Shown one piece after another: positions 3,058-31,582 of a stretch of 32,000 nucleotides of DNA. The DNA is from Candidatus Baldrarchaeota archaeon. GTDB lineage: Archaea > Asgardarchaeota > Baldrarchaeia > Baldrarchaeales > DXJG01. Each line of letters starts with the position of its first letter. Positions within the stretch are counted from its first letter, which is position 1. A program made the translations under genes and the position numbers. The notes under the pieces were generated by a model. It saw nothing but the letters and a program-made list of their open reading frames with translations, was not told the origin of the DNA and ran no database searches. The stretch covers positions 180,001 to 212,000 of the forward strand of contig DXJG01000004.1 of assembly GCA_019056805.1 (NCBI GenBank), given 5' to 3'.

Positions 3058-3873
3058 TTGGAGACTATTAAAAACGATATTAACAAATTAGTTAAAGGGT
3101 TACAAGCTTCCCCGTACATAGAAGCTGCTGCGATTTTTGTAAACCAAGGTTATCTTGTTGCTGGCTCTTTACCTCCTGATAGTGATAAAGTTGTACGAGG
3201 TTTTTTATCAATTACCCCTTTAAAAGAGGAGCAAAAAATGACTCTAGAAAGCAGTGAGGGCTCCTTAGGAATAGTTAAAGCAAAAAATCTCACAGCTGCA
3301 CTTCTCGCAAGAAAAGGAACTTCCATAGGACTATTATATGTTGAGTTAAAAAAGGCTTTAGAATCGCTTAAAAGATTTGAAGAAACTCGTCCAGAAATAG
3401 AGAAAATAATCGCCATTAAAGAGAAGGTTAGTCCTCCTTCCATTCCTTCAGAACCGTTGCAACCACCAATACCACCAGAACCAACTCCATTATCGAAACC
3501 TGAACCAGAAGTTATCAAAGAGGAAAAGCCAATTGAAGTTCCTCCCCCACCTCCTCCACCAACAGTGGAGAAAGAAAAATTGACTGTTGAAAAAGTTGAA
3601 GAAGTACCACCAAGCGAAGAAGCCGTAGAAGAGGTAGCCATCACTTGGAACAGCATTCTGAGTAAGAAATTATCCCTTATGGAGTTCTTAGATTTAGTTG
3701 AGAAAAATAAGTTAAACGAAAAATTTGGAAGCTGGCTTGCAGATCTTTTTATGCTCATTGACGGTGAAAAATCGGTTAGAGAACTAGCTAAAGGTATTGC
3801 ACGTAACGAGGGGGAGGTTCTAGAAGCTATAAAATTTTTGATTAGTAAAAAGGCGGTTGAAATAAAAGAGTAA
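3058..3873 (+). CDS. Roadblock/LAMTOR-like N-terminal domain + Pro/Glu-rich linker + C-terminal winged helix
   Basis: The N-terminus follows the roadblock pattern (IEAAAIFVNQGYLVAGSLP...SIGLLYVELKKALESL). The linker has a PPPPPPP tract. The C-terminus LIDGEKSVRELA...EVLEAIKFLISKKAVEI is wHTH-like. GGAGG SD precedes the TTG start. Confidence 0.7.
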   Translation: METIKNDINKLVKGLQASPYIEAAAIFVNQGYLVAGSLPPDSDKVVRGFLSITPLKEEQKMTLESSEGSLGIVKAKNLTAALLARKGTSIGLLYVELKKALESLKRFEETRPEIEKIIAIKEKVSPPSIPSEPLQPPIPPEPTPLSKPEPEVIKEEKPIEVPPPPPPPTVEKEKLTVEKVEEVPPSEEAVEEVAITWNSILSKKLSLMEFLDLVEKNKLNEKFGSWLADLFMLIDGEKSVRELAKGIARNEGEVLEAIKFLISKKAVEIKE

Positions 3874-3886
3874 GAGGGGATTAGGA

Positions 3887-4519
3887 ATGGTATTAAAAGA
3901 AAAATGGATTGATGCTGAAAAGTTTCCTAATACATACCCAGGAGGAATAATGGGAAGAAAAGATGCACGTAAAATCTTTGAACAATATAAAGTGACATTT
4001 GTGCCAAGTCATTTACTTGGTTTTTTAAGCTATAGTTTAACTAGTGTATTTGGAGATATGGAAAGATCGAGAAAAACTCTATACCATATTGGTAGGCAAA
4101 TTGGCAGAATGGTAGAGGAACTTTTAACTTACGGTAAGGTGGAACGTCCAGCTGAAAAGTTCAATGATTTAAATGACGTAATTAGAAATCATATCGGAAA
4201 TCTTAGAGTTGGACTTGAAGCTATTACGGGATTACCCGGTGATAACATTATAATGCGTGTAACTGAGGATCTAAACAAAATTAGAATTAGATTAATAGAA
4301 TGTCCACTTTGTACTTCTCTTAAATCTATGGGTTATAGAGAAGTCATATGGAAGATAAATGAACCTATGTGTGACTTCTACTCTGGACTTTTTGCAGGAT
4401 GGACCGAACATAGTATCAGAAATAATATCGGAGTCGAATGCAAAGAAACACGTTGTCAAATGGCTGATAAACACATTAACTTCTGTGAATTCTTGATTAC
4501 ACTTAAAAGACCAGAGTAA
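3887..4519 (+). CDS. V4R (4-vinyl reductase)-domain protein
   Basis: ECPLC...PMCDFYSGLFAG...KETRC...FCEF is the V4R signature, including C/E/C/C Zn-ligand positions. It starts 13 nt after the upstream stop. Confidence 0.8.
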   Translation: MVLKEKWIDAEKFPNTYPGGIMGRKDARKIFEQYKVTFVPSHLLGFLSYSLTSVFGDMERSRKTLYHIGRQIGRMVEELLTYGKVERPAEKFNDLNDVIRNHIGNLRVGLEAITGLPGDNIIMRVTEDLNKIRIRLIECPLCTSLKSMGYREVIWKINEPMCDFYSGLFAGWTEHSIRNNIGVECKETRCQMADKHINFCEFLITLKRPE

Positions 4520-4579: not shown

Positions 4580-5335
4580 TTGAAGAAAATGGAGGTATAC
4601 GGATTAGAAACGATTCCTATAGTCAAAGAAGGAGATAACATTGCCAAATTAATAATTGAAGCAGCTAAAAAAGAAAATGTGGGTATTCAAGATAACGATA
4701 TAATTGTCATTGCCCAAACCATCGTGTCCAGGTCTGAAGGAAGAATAGTTAACTTGAAGGACATCGAACCTAGTCCTTTTGCAAAAATCTTAGCAAATGA
4801 AACTAGAAAAGATCCACGTCTGGTCGAAGTTATTCTAAGGGAAAGTAAAGGCATAGTAAGAATGGGAGGACACCACCTAATAATGGAGACACGTCATGGA
4901 TTTGTTTGCGCTAATAGCGGCGTAGATAGAAGCAATGTTCCAGGTGAGGAAACAGTCTCACTTCTTCCTTTAGATCCCGATGCATCCGCTAGAAAAATAA
5001 GAGATGAAATAAGGCGGCTAACTGGGAAGGAAGTTGCAGTTATTATCAGTGATACCTTTGGTCGACCTTTACGTGAAGGAGCTGTCGGTGTAGCTATTGG
5101 TGTGGCTGGTATCGATCCTCTTTACGATATGAGAGGGAGAAAAGATCTTTTTGGATATGTTTTAGAAACAACACTAGTTGCGATAGCTGATGAGCTTGCT
5201 TCAGCAGCGGAACTTGTTATGGGAGAGTCAAATGAGGGAATTCCTGTAGTTGTAATTAGAGGTTTCAAATATCCTAAGGGTGAATATTCGATTCAAAAAT
5301 TGTTGAGACCAGTAGAAAAAGACTTATTTAGATAA
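4580..5335 (+). CDS. cofE: Coenzyme F420-0:L-glutamate ligase
   Basis: Motifs AQTIVSRSEGR, ANSGVDRSN, DPDASA, VIISDTFGRPLREG and ADELASAAELVMGE. GGTGAGG SD. Confidence 0.95.
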   Translation: MKKMEVYGLETIPIVKEGDNIAKLIIEAAKKENVGIQDNDIIVIAQTIVSRSEGRIVNLKDIEPSPFAKILANETRKDPRLVEVILRESKGIVRMGGHHLIMETRHGFVCANSGVDRSNVPGEETVSLLPLDPDASARKIRDEIRRLTGKEVAVIISDTFGRPLREGAVGVAIGVAGIDPLYDMRGRKDLFGYVLETTLVAIADELASAAELVMGESNEGIPVVVIRGFKYPKGEYSIQKLLRPVEKDLFR

Positions 5336-23350: not shown

Positions 23351-25309
23351 GTGAACAGAGTGAGGAAAGTATTTGCTACTTGTCCCAGAGATTGTTACGA
23401 TACCTGTTCTCTAATTGTCTATGTTGAAGATAATAAAATTGTTAAAATTGAAGGTAGAAAAGATCATCCAACAACTCAAGGATTCCTCTGTTCAAAAGCA
23501 AGGAAATACCTAAAATATGTTTACAGCAAGGATAGAGTTTTATATCCTATGAGAAGAGTTGGAAAGAAAGGTGAAGGAAAATTTAAGCGTATTAGTTGGG
23601 AGGAGGCTCTAAAAGAAATAACCAACAAGATAAAAGAAATAATTAGGGAATACGGGCCACAAGCCATATTGCACTATGAGTATGCAGGTCACTGTGGTCT
23701 TCTAAACTATTATTTCCCCTTAAGATTCTTTAATGCAATAGGAGCATCAAGTATTCAACATACAATATGCGATTCTGCAGGAGAAGAAGCAATAGCTTTA
23801 CACTACGGTTTACACTATGGATCTTTCCCAGGAGATATTTTGAAAGCTAAAATGATTGTTTTATGGGGTATAAACTCGGCTTGGACAAATCTTCACGGCT
23901 ACACACTTGTTTTAAAGGCTAAACGTAATGGGGCAAAAATTTATGTTATCGATCCGGTAAAAACGAAAACTTCAAACATAGGGATACACATACGTCCAAA
24001 GGTAGGTAGCGATGCAGCGCTTGCCCTTGGAATAGCAAACTACATCATAGAAAACAATTTGTACGATGAAAAGTTCATCGAGAAATATACTTTTGGTTTT
24101 GAAAAATTTAAAGAGCACGTAAAAAGTTTCACTCTAGATAAGACTTCCAAAATTACAGGATTATCTAAAGAGGAAATCACTAATTTTGCGGAGGATTATG
24201 CCAATCTCAAACCTAACATTATTCATATTGGCTATGGTATGCAACGACATTTAAATGGAGGGGAAATTGTTAGAGCGATATGTCTTCTTCCAGCCTTAAT
24301 AGGCTTACATAGAGGTTTCATCTATTGTAATGGAGTTAGAGATTTCGACCTAGACTATCTTACTGGAAAAAATTTGAGAAAAGTTCCAGAGAAAAGCATC
24401 AATATGGTTCAACTCGGCATGGCTCTTAAAAACGGGGAAATTAAAATGATTTTCATTTACGGTGCTAATCCCCTTATCACCCTTCCTAACCAAAATCTTG
24501 TACGAAGAATTTTCCAGCAAGAGGACTTATTTATCGTTGTACATGATATATTTAAGACTGAAACAGCAAATTACGCTGATATTTTACTTCCAGCAACAAC
24601 GTTCTTCGAAACTGTGGATGTACATGTTTCTTATTGGCATGAATATATCTCTATTAATGAAAAGGCTATTGAACCCTTGGGAGAAGCAAAAAGTAACGTA
24701 GAATTGTTTAAGGAACTAGCAAGGTACATGGGTCTAAATGATAAAGAACTTTATGAAGATGAATGGGAAATCATAAGAAATCTGTTGGCTAAAAGTAAAA
24801 TGGTTAACTTCACCTTGGAAGAATTGAGATCTAAGGGATTTGCTAAACTTAAGACTTTTCCGAAAGATGAATATCAGACGCCATCAGGTAAAATAGAATT
24901 TTACTCTCAAAAAGCTGAGCAAAGAGGTCTAAATCCATTACCACAACATGTAGAAATTAAAGGTAAATATCCTATTTTTCTCCTTACACCTAGGCATCGA
25001 GATATCTTAGGTTCTCAATTTAGAAATGTTATGCCTAGATTTGAACCTGTAATTGAAATAAATATTGAAGATGCCGTTGAACGAGGTATAAAAGATGGAA
25101 ATATTGTTGCTGTGTATAACGATTTAGGAGAAATTGTCTTAAGGGCTAAGGTTTCAGATAAAGTTCCTAGAGGTGTAGCATTAGCATATTTTTTCATTAA
25201 GGATCTAAAGGGAAGATGCATTAATACTCTTACTACTGATGAAACGCAGATTTATGGCGGATGTTCAACATTCAACTCCACTTTCATAGAAATTCGGAAA
25301 TTAAAGTAA
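23351..25309 (+). CDS. Cytoplasmic Mo/W-bisPGD oxidoreductase catalytic subunit (MopB_3/YyaE-YoaE-like, substrate unknown)
   Basis: CPRDCYDTC...FLCSK [4Fe-4S] motif, HTICDSAG (probable Cys metal ligand), LWGIN, YGANP, ADILLPATT, TPSGKIEF and a C-terminal binding domain. No Tat signal. Confidence 0.9.
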   Translation: MNRVRKVFATCPRDCYDTCSLIVYVEDNKIVKIEGRKDHPTTQGFLCSKARKYLKYVYSKDRVLYPMRRVGKKGEGKFKRISWEEALKEITNKIKEIIREYGPQAILHYEYAGHCGLLNYYFPLRFFNAIGASSIQHTICDSAGEEAIALHYGLHYGSFPGDILKAKMIVLWGINSAWTNLHGYTLVLKAKRNGAKIYVIDPVKTKTSNIGIHIRPKVGSDAALALGIANYIIENNLYDEKFIEKYTFGFEKFKEHVKSFTLDKTSKITGLSKEEITNFAEDYANLKPNIIHIGYGMQRHLNGGEIVRAICLLPALIGLHRGFIYCNGVRDFDLDYLTGKNLRKVPEKSINMVQLGMALKNGEIKMIFIYGANPLITLPNQNLVRRIFQQEDLFIVVHDIFKTETANYADILLPATTFFETVDVHVSYWHEYISINEKAIEPLGEAKSNVELFKELARYMGLNDKELYEDEWEIIRNLLAKSKMVNFTLEELRSKGFAKLKTFPKDEYQTPSGKIEFYSQKAEQRGLNPLPQHVEIKGKYPIFLLTPRHRDILGSQFRNVMPRFEPVIEINIEDAVERGIKDGNIVAVYNDLGEIVLRAKVSDKVPRGVALAYFFIKDLKGRCINTLTTDETQIYGGCSTFNSTFIEIRKLK

Positions 25310-25658: not shown

Positions 25659-26228
25659 ATGGAATTGGATTCAACAAAACCACTAATTAAAATTGATGAA
25701 GAAACCAGCGATTTTATAGCTGAAATATTGGAAAAAGGGGCGCAAATATTTCCAAAAGAGGAATTAGAGAGAATTCTCACATGTATTCAATGCGGGACAT
25801 GTTATGGAAGTTGTCCTTCTGGTAGAATAACGGCATATCATGTTAGAGTAATCATGAGAAAAGCACAACTAGGCCTCAAAGAAGAGGTATTAAAAGATGA
25901 AAACCTATGGAACTGCACAACCTGCTATACCTGTCAAGAAAGGTGTCCCAGAGAAGTTGAAACAACAGATACCATTCGATTAATTAGAAACATGGCTTTT
26001 GAAGCAGGGTACGTGAAAAAACCACATCTAATAGTTTCAAGGAACTTTATTGAAACAGGACACAGTATACCTTTGAGAGATGAGGACAAGGAAAAGAGAA
26101 AACGTGTAGGTGTATCTGAAATACCTCCAACCACCTTAACCTATCCAGAAGCTCTAAAAGAAGTTCAAACATTAGTTGAAGCTACTGGTTTTAAAGAAAA
26201 GGTTTTAAAACTTTTGGAGGAAGGGTAA
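25659..26228 (+). CDS. hdrC: Heterodisulfide reductase subunit C
   Basis: Two [4Fe-4S] motifs, CIQCGTCYGSCP and WNCTTCYTCQERCPR. Its stop directly abuts the hdrB ATG. Confidence 0.95.
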   Translation: MELDSTKPLIKIDEETSDFIAEILEKGAQIFPKEELERILTCIQCGTCYGSCPSGRITAYHVRVIMRKAQLGLKEEVLKDENLWNCTTCYTCQERCPREVETTDTIRLIRNMAFEAGYVKKPHLIVSRNFIETGHSIPLRDEDKEKRKRVGVSEIPPTTLTYPEALKEVQTLVEATGFKEKVLKLLEEG

Positions 26229-27116
26229 ATGACAAAATACGCTTTCTTTCTAGGCTGCATTGCACCTCTCAGATATCCAGGTCTTGAAGCCGCAACAAAA
26301 AGGGTTATGCAACATTTTAACATAGAACTTTTAGATTTAAATGGTGCATCGTGTTGTCCAGCTCCAGGAGTTTTCGGTAGCTTTGACTTGTGGAACTGGC
26401 TTGTAGTAGCTGCAAGGAATCTTTCACTTGGAGAATCACTTAATGCTGACCTAACAACCATTTGCAATGGTTGTTATGCAACTTTACAAGAGGCATGGCA
26501 CATATTAAAGGAAGATCCCAGCAAACGGAGACGTGTAAACGAAGTTTTAAGTAAAATTAACAGAAATTACAACGCTAAGACAGGAATTAAACATATAATC
26601 GAGGTTTTTGCTAACGATATAGGAATCGACAAAATAAAATCATCTGTTGAAAAATCTCTTGAAGGTCTAAAGGTTGCAGTTCACTATGGATGTCACTTTT
26701 TAAAGCCTAGAAAAATAAGAGGTCATGGTTCGAGTGAGAAGCCGCATATACTTGAGGATATTGTTACAGCTCTTGGCGCCGAGCCTGTACACTATAAGGA
26801 AAAATTGCTCTGCTGTGGTGCTGGCGGAGGGGTAAGGGCAGGCAACCTAGATGCAGCTCTAGAGATTACAGCAAGAAAATTAGCAAGTGTAAAAGAAGCC
26901 GGCGCCGACTGCATTCTTAACCCATGTTCCTTCTGTCACTTTCAATTCGACAGGGGACAGGTAGAACTTCGAGAGAGAAAAGGAATCGAATTTAATATCC
27001 CAGTGATTCATCTTGTTCAACTAGTTGGTTTAGCGATGGGAATTGACCCTAAAAGCCTAGGGCTGTATGAAAATGAAATTCCTCCAACATATCTAGATAA
27101 GCTAGGTTTGAGGTGA
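26229..27116 (+). CDS. hdrB: Heterodisulfide reductase subunit B
   Basis: Two CCG domains: FLGC...SCCPAPG...CNGC and HYGCH...CCGAGGG...CSFC. GTGA overlap with hdrA. Confidence 0.95.
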   Translation: MTKYAFFLGCIAPLRYPGLEAATKRVMQHFNIELLDLNGASCCPAPGVFGSFDLWNWLVVAARNLSLGESLNADLTTICNGCYATLQEAWHILKEDPSKRRRVNEVLSKINRNYNAKTGIKHIIEVFANDIGIDKIKSSVEKSLEGLKVAVHYGCHFLKPRKIRGHGSSEKPHILEDIVTALGAEPVHYKEKLLCCGAGGGVRAGNLDAALEITARKLASVKEAGADCILNPCSFCHFQFDRGQVELRERKGIEFNIPVIHLVQLVGLAMGIDPKSLGLYENEIPPTYLDKLGLR

Positions 27117-29578: not shown

Positions 29579-30010
29579 TTATTTCTTGGCTTTTTCCATC
29601 TCTTTCTTTAACCATTCCTCTAATTTCGCATGGTCCGATCCTGGTATAAGATTTTTTAATTCTTCATCTAGATTTTCAGGTTCTATTATTGCGATCCACC
29701 CTTTTCCATAAGGATCATCATTTATTAGCGATGGATTTTTCTGAACTTCTTCATTTAACTCAACGATTTTCCCCGTGACCGGGGATTTTAATGGTCCGAC
29801 CCACTTTCCACTCTCGATTGTTCCAAGGGTTTTCCCTTGCTTTACTGTCTGCCCAACTTTTTTAGTCCTGATGAAGAGAATTTTTCCCGCAGCACTTTGA
29901 GCCCAGTCATTATATCCTACTTTTACCTTTCCATCTTCTATTTTTGCCCACATATGGTCAGGGTGGTAGTATAAGTCATCTGGGAATTCATGTTCTCCTA
30001 TCTTAACCAT
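29579..30010 (-). CDS. GcvH-family lipoyl-carrier protein, LbpA-like type
   Basis: FPDDLYY...HMWAK...GYNDWAQSAAGKI...TIESGKWVGPLKSPVTG...INDDPYGKGWI, with lipoyl Lys69. The start is ATG 30010 (GGAGGA SD). Confidence 0.92.
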   Translation of the reverse strand: MVKIGEHEFPDDLYYHPDHMWAKIEDGKVKVGYNDWAQSAAGKILFIRTKKVGQTVKQGKTLGTIESGKWVGPLKSPVTGKIVELNEEVQKNPSLINDDPYGKGWIAIIEPENLDEELKNLIPGSDHAKLEEWLKKEMEKAKK

Positions 30011-30198
30011 CTTAATACTCCTCCATCCACTATTACATCTAACCAATTTATACAACTTACTTAAAATATTATTCCCATTTCACAGAAGGTTTAATGATAC
30101 CAATGATCCTATTATTTGATTCGAAAAATAAGTTTTAAGATTAATAAACAAATAAAATTAAGGGTCATGTGTTGATATAAAGATTAAAAATAGTTTGT

Positions 30199-30900
30199 TT
30201 AGCCTTCAAATGTTATATAGAAGTGACAAGCATCGTCTCCTCTTATAATCGTTGATGCAAGATTAACAACTACATCCTTTTCAGGTTTAAATTTACTAAA
30301 AATATATGAAAAACTTAATTCGTGAATTTTACACGGAATTTCTTTGAGTTCTCCTTTTAAAGCATGGCTAATTTCCTGAAATATACAATTTCTTATGACA
30401 ATAAATATTTCTTTTCCATCTAATTTTTTAAGTTCACAATACATGCCCATATCATTGAGCTCATCTCTAAGAACATTCCAGAATCTATCAGTTGCTAATA
30501 CATCCTCACCATGTTTTCTCTTTAAACATTTAATTACGTCTTCGCCTAAAATATTTCCAACTTCCATAACCCAAGCATCTATTTCTTTATTACCATATTT
30601 TCGAGCGAATGCTTTGATAAGAGCTTGTGTAAGTAAGGGATAGTTTCTTGGTGGGTATATAAACATGAAGGGTTTTCTAAGCTTGTAAACCGTTGCTGGT
30701 CTACCTACACTTTCCTTTAAAAGACTTGTTTCAACATATCCATTTGACGAAAGTTCATCTAAAATATTTTTAATAGACGTATAGCTTAAACCTGTATTTT
30801 GAGAAATTTCAAGGATTGTAGCTGAGGGGTTAACTGTTAGATATTCTAGGACCATTTGCATTCTCTTAAACTTATCACGTGGCTCCATAATTGTTCCCAT
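30199..30900 (-). CDS. HTH transcription regulator with C-terminal V4R-like/SufR-like Cys sensor domain (COG2345-like)
   Basis: N-terminal wHTH (TILEISQNTGLSYTSIKNILDELSSNGYV...GRPATVY). The C-terminal domain has NC-x17-C-x34-C plus one more Cys. Confidence 0.8.
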   Translation of the reverse strand: MGTIMEPRDKFKRMQMVLEYLTVNPSATILEISQNTGLSYTSIKNILDELSSNGYVETSLLKESVGRPATVYKLRKPFMFIYPPRNYPLLTQALIKAFARKYGNKEIDAWVMEVGNILGEDVIKCLKRKHGEDVLATDRFWNVLRDELNDMGMYCELKKLDGKEIFIVIRNCIFQEISHALKGELKEIPCKIHELSFSYIFSKFKPEKDVVVNLASTIIRGDDACHFYITFEG

Positions 30901-31150: not shown

Positions 31151-31582
31151 TTATGTAGCTAAGTATTTTTGAAGAGCATTTTCCAAAGGTCCTTGACCAA
31201 CTGCTCCTACAATTTTCTCCACTGGTTTCCCATTTTTGAATATAATAAACGTTGGAATACCCATGATATAATATCTCTGAGCAACATCTGGATTTTCATC
31301 AACATTCAACTTAGCAACAATAACTTTCCCAGCATATTTCTTTGCAAGAGCTTCCACAACAGGAGCCATCATACGACAAGGCGCACACCATTCAGCCCAA
31401 AAATCTACAAGCACTGGCAACTTTGCATTATTTATAACTTCATCGAAATTTTTTGAAGTCAGCTTTATAACTTTCCCTTCCGAGCCAAAATTTGGTTCTG
31501 ATTTCTCCTTAGTTGACATCATCAGTTCCCTAGCTTTTTTCGCCAGTATTTTTTCTAATTCCGGGTCTTTTTCTTCACTCAT
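31151..31582 (-). CDS. trxA: Thioredoxin with N-terminal helical extension
   Basis: DFWAEWCAPC active site, AKLNVDENP and cis-Pro motif GIPT. Confidence 0.95.
   Translation of the reverse strand: MSEEKDPELEKILAKKARELMMSTKEKSEPNFGSEGKVIKLTSKNFDEVINNAKLPVLVDFWAEWCAPCRMMAPVVEALAKKYAGKVIVAKLNVDENPDVAQRYYIMGIPTFIIFKNGKPVEKIVGAVGQGPLENALQKYLAT

Follow-up and report, generated by a model that had tools for sequence, protein, structure and literature searches.

Which disulfide is reduced by heterodisulfide reductase (Hdr) complexes of the HdrABC type in archaea that do not make methane? The question is raised by a locus of Candidatus Baldrarchaeota archaeon, an Asgard archaeon (GenBank assembly GCA_019056805.1, contig DXJG01000004.1, positions 180,001 to 212,000; this stretch of 32,000 nucleotides is called the window), where the gene for a lipoyl carrier protein without cysteine (Cys) lies next to an hdrC-hdrB-hdrA operon. 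HdrABC genes are common outside methanogens, in hosts without Mcr, and are highly expressed in Asgard archaea, and the disulfide of these complexes is still called 'unidentified' (PMC11291895). In methanogens the CCG-domain subunits of Hdr reduce the heterodisulfide of coenzyme M and coenzyme B (CoM-S-S-CoB) at two non-cubane [4Fe-4S] clusters, as described by Wagner et al. 2017. Our analysis finds the carrier to resemble LbpA, the lipoyl carrier of sulfur-oxidising Hdr-like (sHdr) systems, rather than canonical GcvH, and suggests that it probably exchanges a lipoyl dithiol/disulfide pair with Hdr modules that have CCG domains, including the adjacent HdrCBA-MvhD.

The carrier protein and its closest homologues

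Translation from ATG 30010 gives an open reading frame (ORF) that contains AQSAAGKILFIRTKKVG and the loop IESGKWVGP, whose lysine is K69, and that encodes no Cys. An upstream TTG at 30055 offers an alternative start that would add 15 residues including one Cys; the ATG is nevertheless taken as the start because homologues begin at MVKI, and the start, loop and Cys count given in an earlier note on this DNA were thereby confirmed. The protein matches Pfam GCV_H (PF01597) at 127 bits, and its AlphaFold2 model, built from an input alignment of 38 sequences, has a predicted local distance difference test score of 95.9 and template modelling (TM) scores of 0.83–0.84 to solved H proteins (1ONL, 3AB9), beyond which it has a predicted extra C-terminal helix at residues 127–142. 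K69, W70 and G72 are invariant throughout the 38-sequence alignment, which extends down to 41% identity. The best 120 homologues from a collection of 5.8 billion proteins share 63–92% identity with the carrier, the named ones being chiefly from Bathyarchaeia. Because ESGKWV is present in all 120, and 118 of the 121 sequences (query included) have no Cys, the motif is no chance feature. These results show a predicted H-protein fold with an invariant lipoyl lysine. The carrier is best explained as a paralogue of the H protein of glycine cleavage that has become specialised.

Comparison with the H protein of glycine cleavage

The best-surviving alternative is that the carrier is a second, redundant GcvH acting in glycine cleavage or in the reductive glycine pathway with the GcvP and GcvT of the genome. 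Several observations point this way, as the protein combines the GCV_H fold with a lipoyl lysine and passes the NCBIfam subfamily model NF002270 (132 bits; cut-off 117), its close homologues are named 'glycine cleavage system protein H' in public records, GcvT and GcvPA/PB are encoded in the genome, and multiple GcvH-family paralogues are frequent in Asgard genomes. The genome (1.92 Mb, 91% complete) contains exactly two GCV_H genes, however, and it is the second, directly after gcvT on contig C6, that has the gcvH signature. This paralogue reads IESEKATEDLYSPVS, has the loop IESEKATEDLY and passes the gcvH equivalog model TIGR00527 at 141 bits, whereas the carrier, at 100 bits, lies under the cut-off of 115.85. 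The gcvPA/PB genes are on contig C17, apart from both gcvT-gcvH and the window.

Residues of the polar cavity differ in the same direction. In Escherichia coli GcvH, E12/E14 hold the aminomethyl-lipoate arm, which on release passes S67, D68 and Y70 (PMC7733448). In our alignments the positions of E14, S67, D68 and Y70 are M20, G72, P73 and K75 in the carrier, and the C6 paralogue retains the Glu, Asp and Tyr. Net charge over the 42 residues around the lysine, which is a sequence proxy and not a surface calculation, was +7 for the carrier, −4 for the C6 paralogue, −6 for an Acinetobacter GcvH and +3 to +5 for sHdr LbpAs, and the isoelectric point was 6.1 for the carrier versus 4.7 on the GcvH side. 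A basic surface around the lysine is a discriminator between LbpA and GcvH in ligase recognition (Kumpel et al. 2026 preprint), and the charge of the carrier is consistent with the LbpA side. These comparisons show the carrier to be distinct from the predicted glycine-cleavage carrier of the genome, a role that the gcvT-linked C6 paralogue would take.

LbpA likeness and phylogenetic analysis

H-type proteins were gathered from genome contigs, metagenome contigs and Thermoproteota genomes, and only those with checked sHdr neighbours were used as LbpA references. The sHdr-type sets seen combined a short HdrA (~350–380 aa) with two copies of HdrB/HdrC, and EtfBA or a ligase was frequently encoded with them. 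ES[GA]KW was found in all checked sHdr-context carriers of Sulfobacillus (L037), Aquificaceae (L066, L081, L087, L100) and Anaerolineae (L036), and likewise in those of Proteobacteria (L051, L053), metagenomes (L199, L205) and presumed Sulfolobales (L243–L255); such carriers also lie beside sHdr-type sets in Acidobacteriota and Saprospiraceae. In most sHdr-context carriers an N-terminal 'GC.IP' motif supplies one Cys and a second is C-terminal, in keeping with the two-Cys definition given by Cao et al. 2018 (PMC6067878). The family motifs of the earlier note were thus borne out, with ES[GA]KW and extra Cys in sHdr-context carriers, most of them with both Cys, and the canonical loop as ESVKA, ESTKA or EAVKT in GcvH sequences. 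In the alignment, H7 of the carrier occupies the column of the N-terminal LbpA Cys and the C-terminal Cys is likewise missing. Our structure search found no solved LbpA structure, and there was no LbpA-named model among the NCBIfam matches of the carrier.

A maximum likelihood tree of 66 rows (LG+C20, careful search) split 23 canonical GcvH sequences, including the C6 paralogue, from all ES/TGKW proteins with an ultrafast bootstrap value of 100 and a Shimodaira–Hasegawa-like approximate likelihood ratio (SH-aLRT) of 98, and the bacterial LbpAs formed a clade (100/100) among the archaeal ES/TGKW sequences. The earlier note had named branching within bona fide archaeal GcvH as the outcome that would count against LbpA likeness, and a grouping of the window clade with archaeal gcvT-type GcvH was rejected by the approximately unbiased (AU) test (delta lnL, the log-likelihood difference, 55; p 0.0008). 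A second tree of 76 rows, obtained by a quick search with Sulfolobales-type and other Thermoproteota sequences added, placed the carrier in a 10-row Baldrarchaeota/Bathyarchaeia clade (SH-aLRT 95), and a 25-row clade of all sHdr LbpAs and Hdr-adjacent TACK proteins (SH-aLRT 99) excluded the window clade. Both trees place the carrier, like the sHdr LbpAs, outside the clade of canonical GcvH. It is a fair statement from these sequence data that the carrier belongs to a broad LbpA-like ES(G/A)KW group, outside canonical GcvH and outside the sHdr-LbpA clade proper, and to a separate Cys-free subfamily of Baldrarchaeota and Bathyarchaeia. The designation as LbpA-like rather than canonical GcvH, first made in the earlier note, is therefore upheld by loop motif, surface charge, lost cavity residues, phylogeny and gene context. 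With the aminomethyl-lipoate cavity replaced, a basic and not acidic surface, a position outside the canonical clade and no gcvT beside any of 20 subfamily clusters, we regard a redundant GcvH as unlikely.

The carrier could also be an LbpA of the true sHdr type, whose task would be to offer sulfane sulfur to an Hdr-like complex that oxidises sulfur, the situation in Hyphomicrobium, Aquifex or Sulfolobales. LbpA has been proposed as the sulfur-substrate-binding entity, and dihydrolipoate cited as a sulfane-sulfur acceptor, by Cao et al. 2018 (PMC6067878). The ES(G/A)KW loop and basic surface are common to the carrier and verified sHdr LbpAs, presumed Sulfolobales sHdr loci include a Cys-free ESAKW carrier, and a lipS/slpl(AB)/lipT-like cluster occurs in the genome. 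The neighbour of the carrier, however, is a classical long HdrA-MvhD with HdrB and HdrC and not an sHdr cluster, in which a short HdrA is encoded in the order hdrC1B1A-hyp-hdrC2B2. The genome, 91% complete, yielded no DsrE, the single TusA is on another contig (C16) and unlinked to the carrier, both conserved LbpA cysteines are missing, and the sHdr-LbpA clade of the quick tree excludes the carrier. An sHdr-type function in sulfur transfer is thus improbable.

The remaining proposal of the earlier note, a Cys-free subfamily acting purely as a lipoyl redox shuttle and not as a sulfur carrier, stands in part. The Cys-free subfamily is distinct and widespread; an exclusively redox role does not follow from the lack of Cys alone, given that presumed Sulfolobales sHdr loci hold a Cys-free carrier and that 'some archaeal LbpAs' are exempted from the two-Cys rule by Cao et al. 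2018 (PMC6067878). A redox shuttle is nonetheless the reading we favour, because the partners are classical HdrCBA-MvhD and CCG modules and not sHdr, in a genome with neither DsrE nor McrA detected and no TusA nearby.

Gene neighbourhood of the carrier in the window

Features of the window around the carrier gene are given in Table 1. The carrier gene is outside the hdrC-hdrB-hdrA operon and convergent with it, at a stop-to-stop distance of 69 bp from hdrA. Among the ORFs of the 32-kb window, Pfam scans detected none for gcvP, gcvT, lpd, DsrE, TusA or rhodanese, in agreement with the earlier note on the lack of gcvP/T/L near the carrier, and the window likewise has no hydrogenase, CdhA or SdhA modules and no lipoate-maturation genes. 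The molybdenum/tungsten (Mo/W) oxidoreductase is a possible electron-input module, with a linkage conserved only in the close relatives examined. The role of the winged helix-turn-helix (wHTH) and thioredoxin genes is uncertain, and their linkage to the carrier gene is found within the genus only.

Table 1. Carrier gene and neighbouring features in the window (positions counted from the first nucleotide of the window)
Feature	Position	Strand	Observations
LbpA-like cysteine-free lipoyl carrier	29579..30010	(-)	143 aa; K69 in IESGKWVGP; Lys/Glu-rich C-terminal helix 127-142
HdrA with fused MvhD-like domain, 798 aa	27113..29509	(+)	NF040770 HdrA2 876 bits (below the cut-off of 1100); Pfam FlpD 656-775
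HdrB, two CCG domains	26229..27116	(+)	TIGR03288 411.6 bits, cut-off 345
HdrC, 4Fe-4S dicluster subunit	25659..26228	(+)	TIGR03290 199.6 bits, cut-off 160
Cytoplasmic Mo/W bis-pyranopterin guanine dinucleotide oxidoreductase	23351..25309	(+)	349 bp upstream of hdrC, same strand
wHTH regulator	30199..30900	(-)	upstream of carrier gene, same strand
Thioredoxin	31151..31582	(-)	same strand as carrier gene

Lipoyl proteins feed peroxidases in some bacteria, and together with the upstream thioredoxin and wHTH regulator, whose genes share its strand in an order retained in the related loci L028 and L029, the carrier might form a module for thiol redox defence or regulation; this is improbable, as the linkage does not extend beyond the genus, the neighbours that recur outside it are Hdr/CCG enzymes and a ligase and not thioredoxin, and the intergenic distances of 188 and 250 bp point to separate transcription of the three genes.

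Elsewhere in the window, four consecutive ORFs of 210–624 aa (3-1874 on the minus strand; 2217-2888, 3058-3873 and 3887-4519 on the plus strand) had no Pfam match at E <= 1e-5.

Gene neighbourhoods of related carriers

The arrangement of the window, with the Mo/W oxidoreductase and HdrCBA converging on carrier, wHTH and thioredoxin genes, was found only in close relatives (L028, L029, L129–L131); the order Mo/W oxidoreductase-HdrC-HdrB-HdrA is kept in L028. Beyond these, Cys-free carriers recur with Hdr/CCG enzymes and lipoate ligase in several gene orders. A genome of the same order (G004, locus L109) has carrier-ligase-HdrC-HdrB next to Nuo-like subunits, and group 4 [NiFe]-hydrogenase clusters surround the carrier in L109 and the relatives L108, L111 and L118, not in the window. 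Among other Asgard genomes, G033 (L125) has ligase-x-carrier-HdrA-HdrC-HdrB-FAD oxidase-CCG (FAD, flavin adenine dinucleotide), and in G006 (L124) the carrier is divergent from HdrA-MvhD-HdrC-HdrB. Two metagenome loci show HdrC-HdrB-HdrA-carrier with stop/start overlap (L142) and CCG-carrier-CCG (L150). Thorarchaeota-type carriers (L034, L038, L114, L116, L117) face a pair of FAD-oxidase and Fer4/CCG (HdrD-like) genes, a Thermoplasmatota locus (L035) has carrier-FAD oxidase-CCG followed further on by ligase-second carrier, Bathyarchaeia loci (L030, L132–L141) have CCG or FAD oxidase, carrier and ligase, and in Thermoproteota (L256, L260, L262) the carrier adjoins a long HdrA, HdrBC or an FAD-oxidase/CCG fusion.

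Neighbours were counted where the flank of the gene measured 4 kb or more, and the set was dereplicated at 70% identity. A CCG gene was found within 6 kb of 11 of the 20 Cys-free ES/TGKW clusters, 9 of 10 sHdr LbpAs and 4 of 26 other H proteins; for CCG or ligase the respective counts were 13/20, 9/10 and 5/26, and for gcvT 0/20, 0/10 and 4/26.

A number of further features were noted at these loci. In L142 (1321-5540) the HdrA is 1267 aa long, and its stop codon overlaps the start of the gene for a Cys-free ETGKW carrier. In the five Thorarchaeota-type loci an Orc1/Cdc6 homologue (neighbour cluster c8), whose linkage we judge incidental, lies between the carrier and the FAD-oxidase/CCG pair, and a giant ORF of 2,500–3,000 aa (2-8698 in L034) is found a few genes upstream of the carrier. 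Neighbour clusters c13 and c19, considered as LipS1/LipS2, were rejected as such and are EtfA and EtfB by NCBIfam, which fits the Etf-linked 'group III' sHdr loci of Cao et al. 2018; EtfB/EtfA genes occur near Cys-free carriers in L119/L120 (Atabeyarchaeia-type) and L262, much as Firmicutes and Actinobacteria have them in their 'group III' sHdr loci. Additionally, six Thermoproteota loci (L217, L218, L221, L222, L259, L261) encode an H-protein subtype with the loop EAGKP(I/L)GT and no Trp, its neighbours being an FAD oxidase and a CCG protein of 389 aa, and H-like ORFs without a lipoyl-lysine motif in the pattern search were seen in L225, L259 and L261.

Genome background

The Hdr/CCG inventory of the genome includes three HdrABC-type sets and three FAD-oxidase/CCG pairs, the HdrA proteins of the other two sets being 794 and 455 aa long. 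The contig of the window also holds, some 110 kb further upstream, a cluster (L210, C11:64717-70117) that has an HdrB-like CCG protein of 291 aa between NuoD-like (561 aa) and NuoH-like subunits, an Ehd/Ehe-like layout of HdrB plus membrane complex. Two lipoate-protein ligases are encoded for only two H-type acceptors. The first, an Lpl(AB)-DUF116 fusion of 534 aa (C9:427328-428932), is flanked on the same strand by genes for a radical-SAM protein and an FAD oxidoreductase (L006, C9:426935-430273), in a layout similar to the lipS-slpl(AB)-lipT clusters of sulfur oxidisers (Tanabe et al. 2023, PMC10332631); the second is a split LplA/LplB (C9:534371-535535), with a small subunit beside the main ORF at C9:534588-535535. 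A ligase gene adjacent to the carrier is found in relatives.

McrA, 2-oxoacid dehydrogenase E2 and DsrE were not found in the 91%-complete genome, and TusA is present in one copy. GcvT, GcvH and GcvPA/PB are all encoded, yet no dihydrolipoamide dehydrogenase scored above the TIGR01350 cut-off genome-wide (best 156 bits versus 409), and E2 is likewise among the proteins not found.

Proposed function

Its position next to the HdrABC operon suggests that the carrier may be the disulfide reduced by HdrABC outside methanogens. K69 would be lipoylated by one of the two lipoate-protein ligases of the genome, and the oxidised dithiolane would then be the disulfide substrate of the HdrB CCG subunit of the adjacent HdrCBA-MvhD, with HdrB as the proposed docking site, standing in for CoM-S-S-CoB, which the non-methanogenic host is not expected to make. 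HdrA could use flavin-based bifurcation to link reduction of the lipoyl group to that of ferredoxin, or operate in reverse, with the upstream Mo/W enzyme and F420H2 as candidate electron donors. The dihydrolipoyl form may be reoxidised by other CCG modules, such as the three FAD-oxidase/CCG pairs or the HdrB among Nuo-like subunits, so that the carrier would shuttle a dithiol/disulfide pair between Hdr and these modules. The window also contains a gene for CofE (F420-0:gamma-glutamyl ligase; 4580-5335, plus strand; Pfam 285 bits), an observation of relevance because F420H2 is the donor for HdrA2B2C2 of Methanosarcina.

More broadly, protein-bound lipoate on the Cys-free carrier may be the physiological 'heterodisulfide' of classical, bifurcating-type HdrABC and of HdrD-like and membrane HdrB modules in non-methanogenic Asgard archaea, Bathyarchaeia and other Thermoproteota, and would replace CoM-S-S-CoB in an energy-coupling cycle built on a protein-borne dithiol/disulfide, although we advance this only tentatively and with less confidence than the partnership with Hdr modules itself.

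Several results weigh against the partnership. The window carrier gene is convergent with hdrCBA and not co-transcribed with it, and the exact layout is kept in close relatives only. Nine of the 20 dereplicated Cys-free clusters had no CCG gene within 6 kb, and the neighbour profiles behind these counts were derived from the counted loci themselves, in related genomes that are not independent; no Hdr, CCG or ligase neighbour was seen at L031 (Bathyarchaeia) or at the Heimdall loci L033 and L032, the last of them a short locus. In the phylogeny, a window clade sister to canonical GcvH was not rejected (AU p 0.25), and the branching order deep among the ES(G/A)KW subclades does not resolve. The claim is therefore limited to a window clade outside canonical GcvH and does not extend to a sister relationship with sHdr LbpAs. 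For every member of the subfamily we infer the role as Hdr partner from genomic data. CoM-S-S-CoB is, moreover, a much stronger oxidant than lipoamide. The E0' of lipoamide is about −0.29 V (Cao et al. 2018, PMC6067878), so that bifurcation would run near equilibrium, which speaks against a strongly exergonic bifurcation and is compatible with a reversible one.

As a dedicated lipoyl carrier found in the company of Hdr/CCG modules and a ligase of its own, the protein is a concrete candidate for the Hdr disulfide that can be tested recombinantly. If the proposal is true, lipoate biology would extend beyond sulfur oxidisers to the energy conservation of anaerobes in the lineage closest to eukaryotes.

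Comparison with known systems

The carrier resembles GcvH-L of Streptococcus pyogenes (5A35; TIGR03077 'not_gcvH') in being a non-glycine-cleavage paralogue of the H protein, but it scores 55 bits against the TIGR03077 cut-off of 144, has a TM score of 0.60 to 5A35 and is without macrodomain/sirtuin partners. With canonical GcvH (TIGR00527; E. coli 3AB9, Thermus thermophilus 1ONL) it shares the fold at the TM scores of 0.83–0.84 given above, 32–35% identity and the same lipoyl-lysine hairpin. In contrast to canonical GcvH, the carrier is below the equivalog cut-off, has M/G/P/K in the cavity, is basic and has the extra C-terminal helix in its model, and its subfamily forms a separate clade without gcvT linkage.

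Likeness to the sHdr LbpAs (Cao et al. 2018, PMC6067878; Tanabe et al. 2023, PMC10332631; Kumpel et al. 2026) is greater. Differences are the lack of both conserved cysteines, the position outside the sHdr-LbpA clade, a classical bifurcating-type HdrCBA-MvhD as partner with no DsrE/TusA sulfur-transferase set, and a host, an anaerobe among the Asgard archaea, that shows no sign of oxidising sulfur. Both are single-domain GcvH homologues with an invariant lipoyl lysine, an ES(G/A)KW(V/T/A)G loop, a basic region around the lysine and Hdr-type CCG partners, and both are distinct from the GcvH of the host; a dedicated Lpl(AB) ligase is a further shared trait, for the carrier in its relatives only.

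The idea of a lipoyl carrier as the Hdr disulfide was already raised by Kohtz et al. 2022 (PMC9723716), who proposed that a GcvH encoded in an Hdr cluster of Culexarchaeia carries the disulfide for HdrB, and Cys-free LbpAs as such are already known. Among the literature searched there was no paper that defines or tests the Asgard/Bathyarchaeia Cys-free subfamily. What is new here is that the carrier is LbpA-like by explicit tests, falls in a separate Cys-free clade and is encoded in a genome whose canonical GcvH system is intact. The Culexarchaeia gene lies in a cluster of Ehe hydrogenase, HdrBC and HdrA2B2C2, and the window has no Ehe hydrogenase; the likeness drawn here is one of described gene context. 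In both cases a GcvH-family gene stands beside HdrA2B2C2-type genes in a non-methanogenic archaeon, the host of the carrier being without detected McrA, and a further likeness is that the carrier of the related genome G004 (L109) has HdrBC on one side and a Nuo-like/[NiFe] group 4 module on the other.

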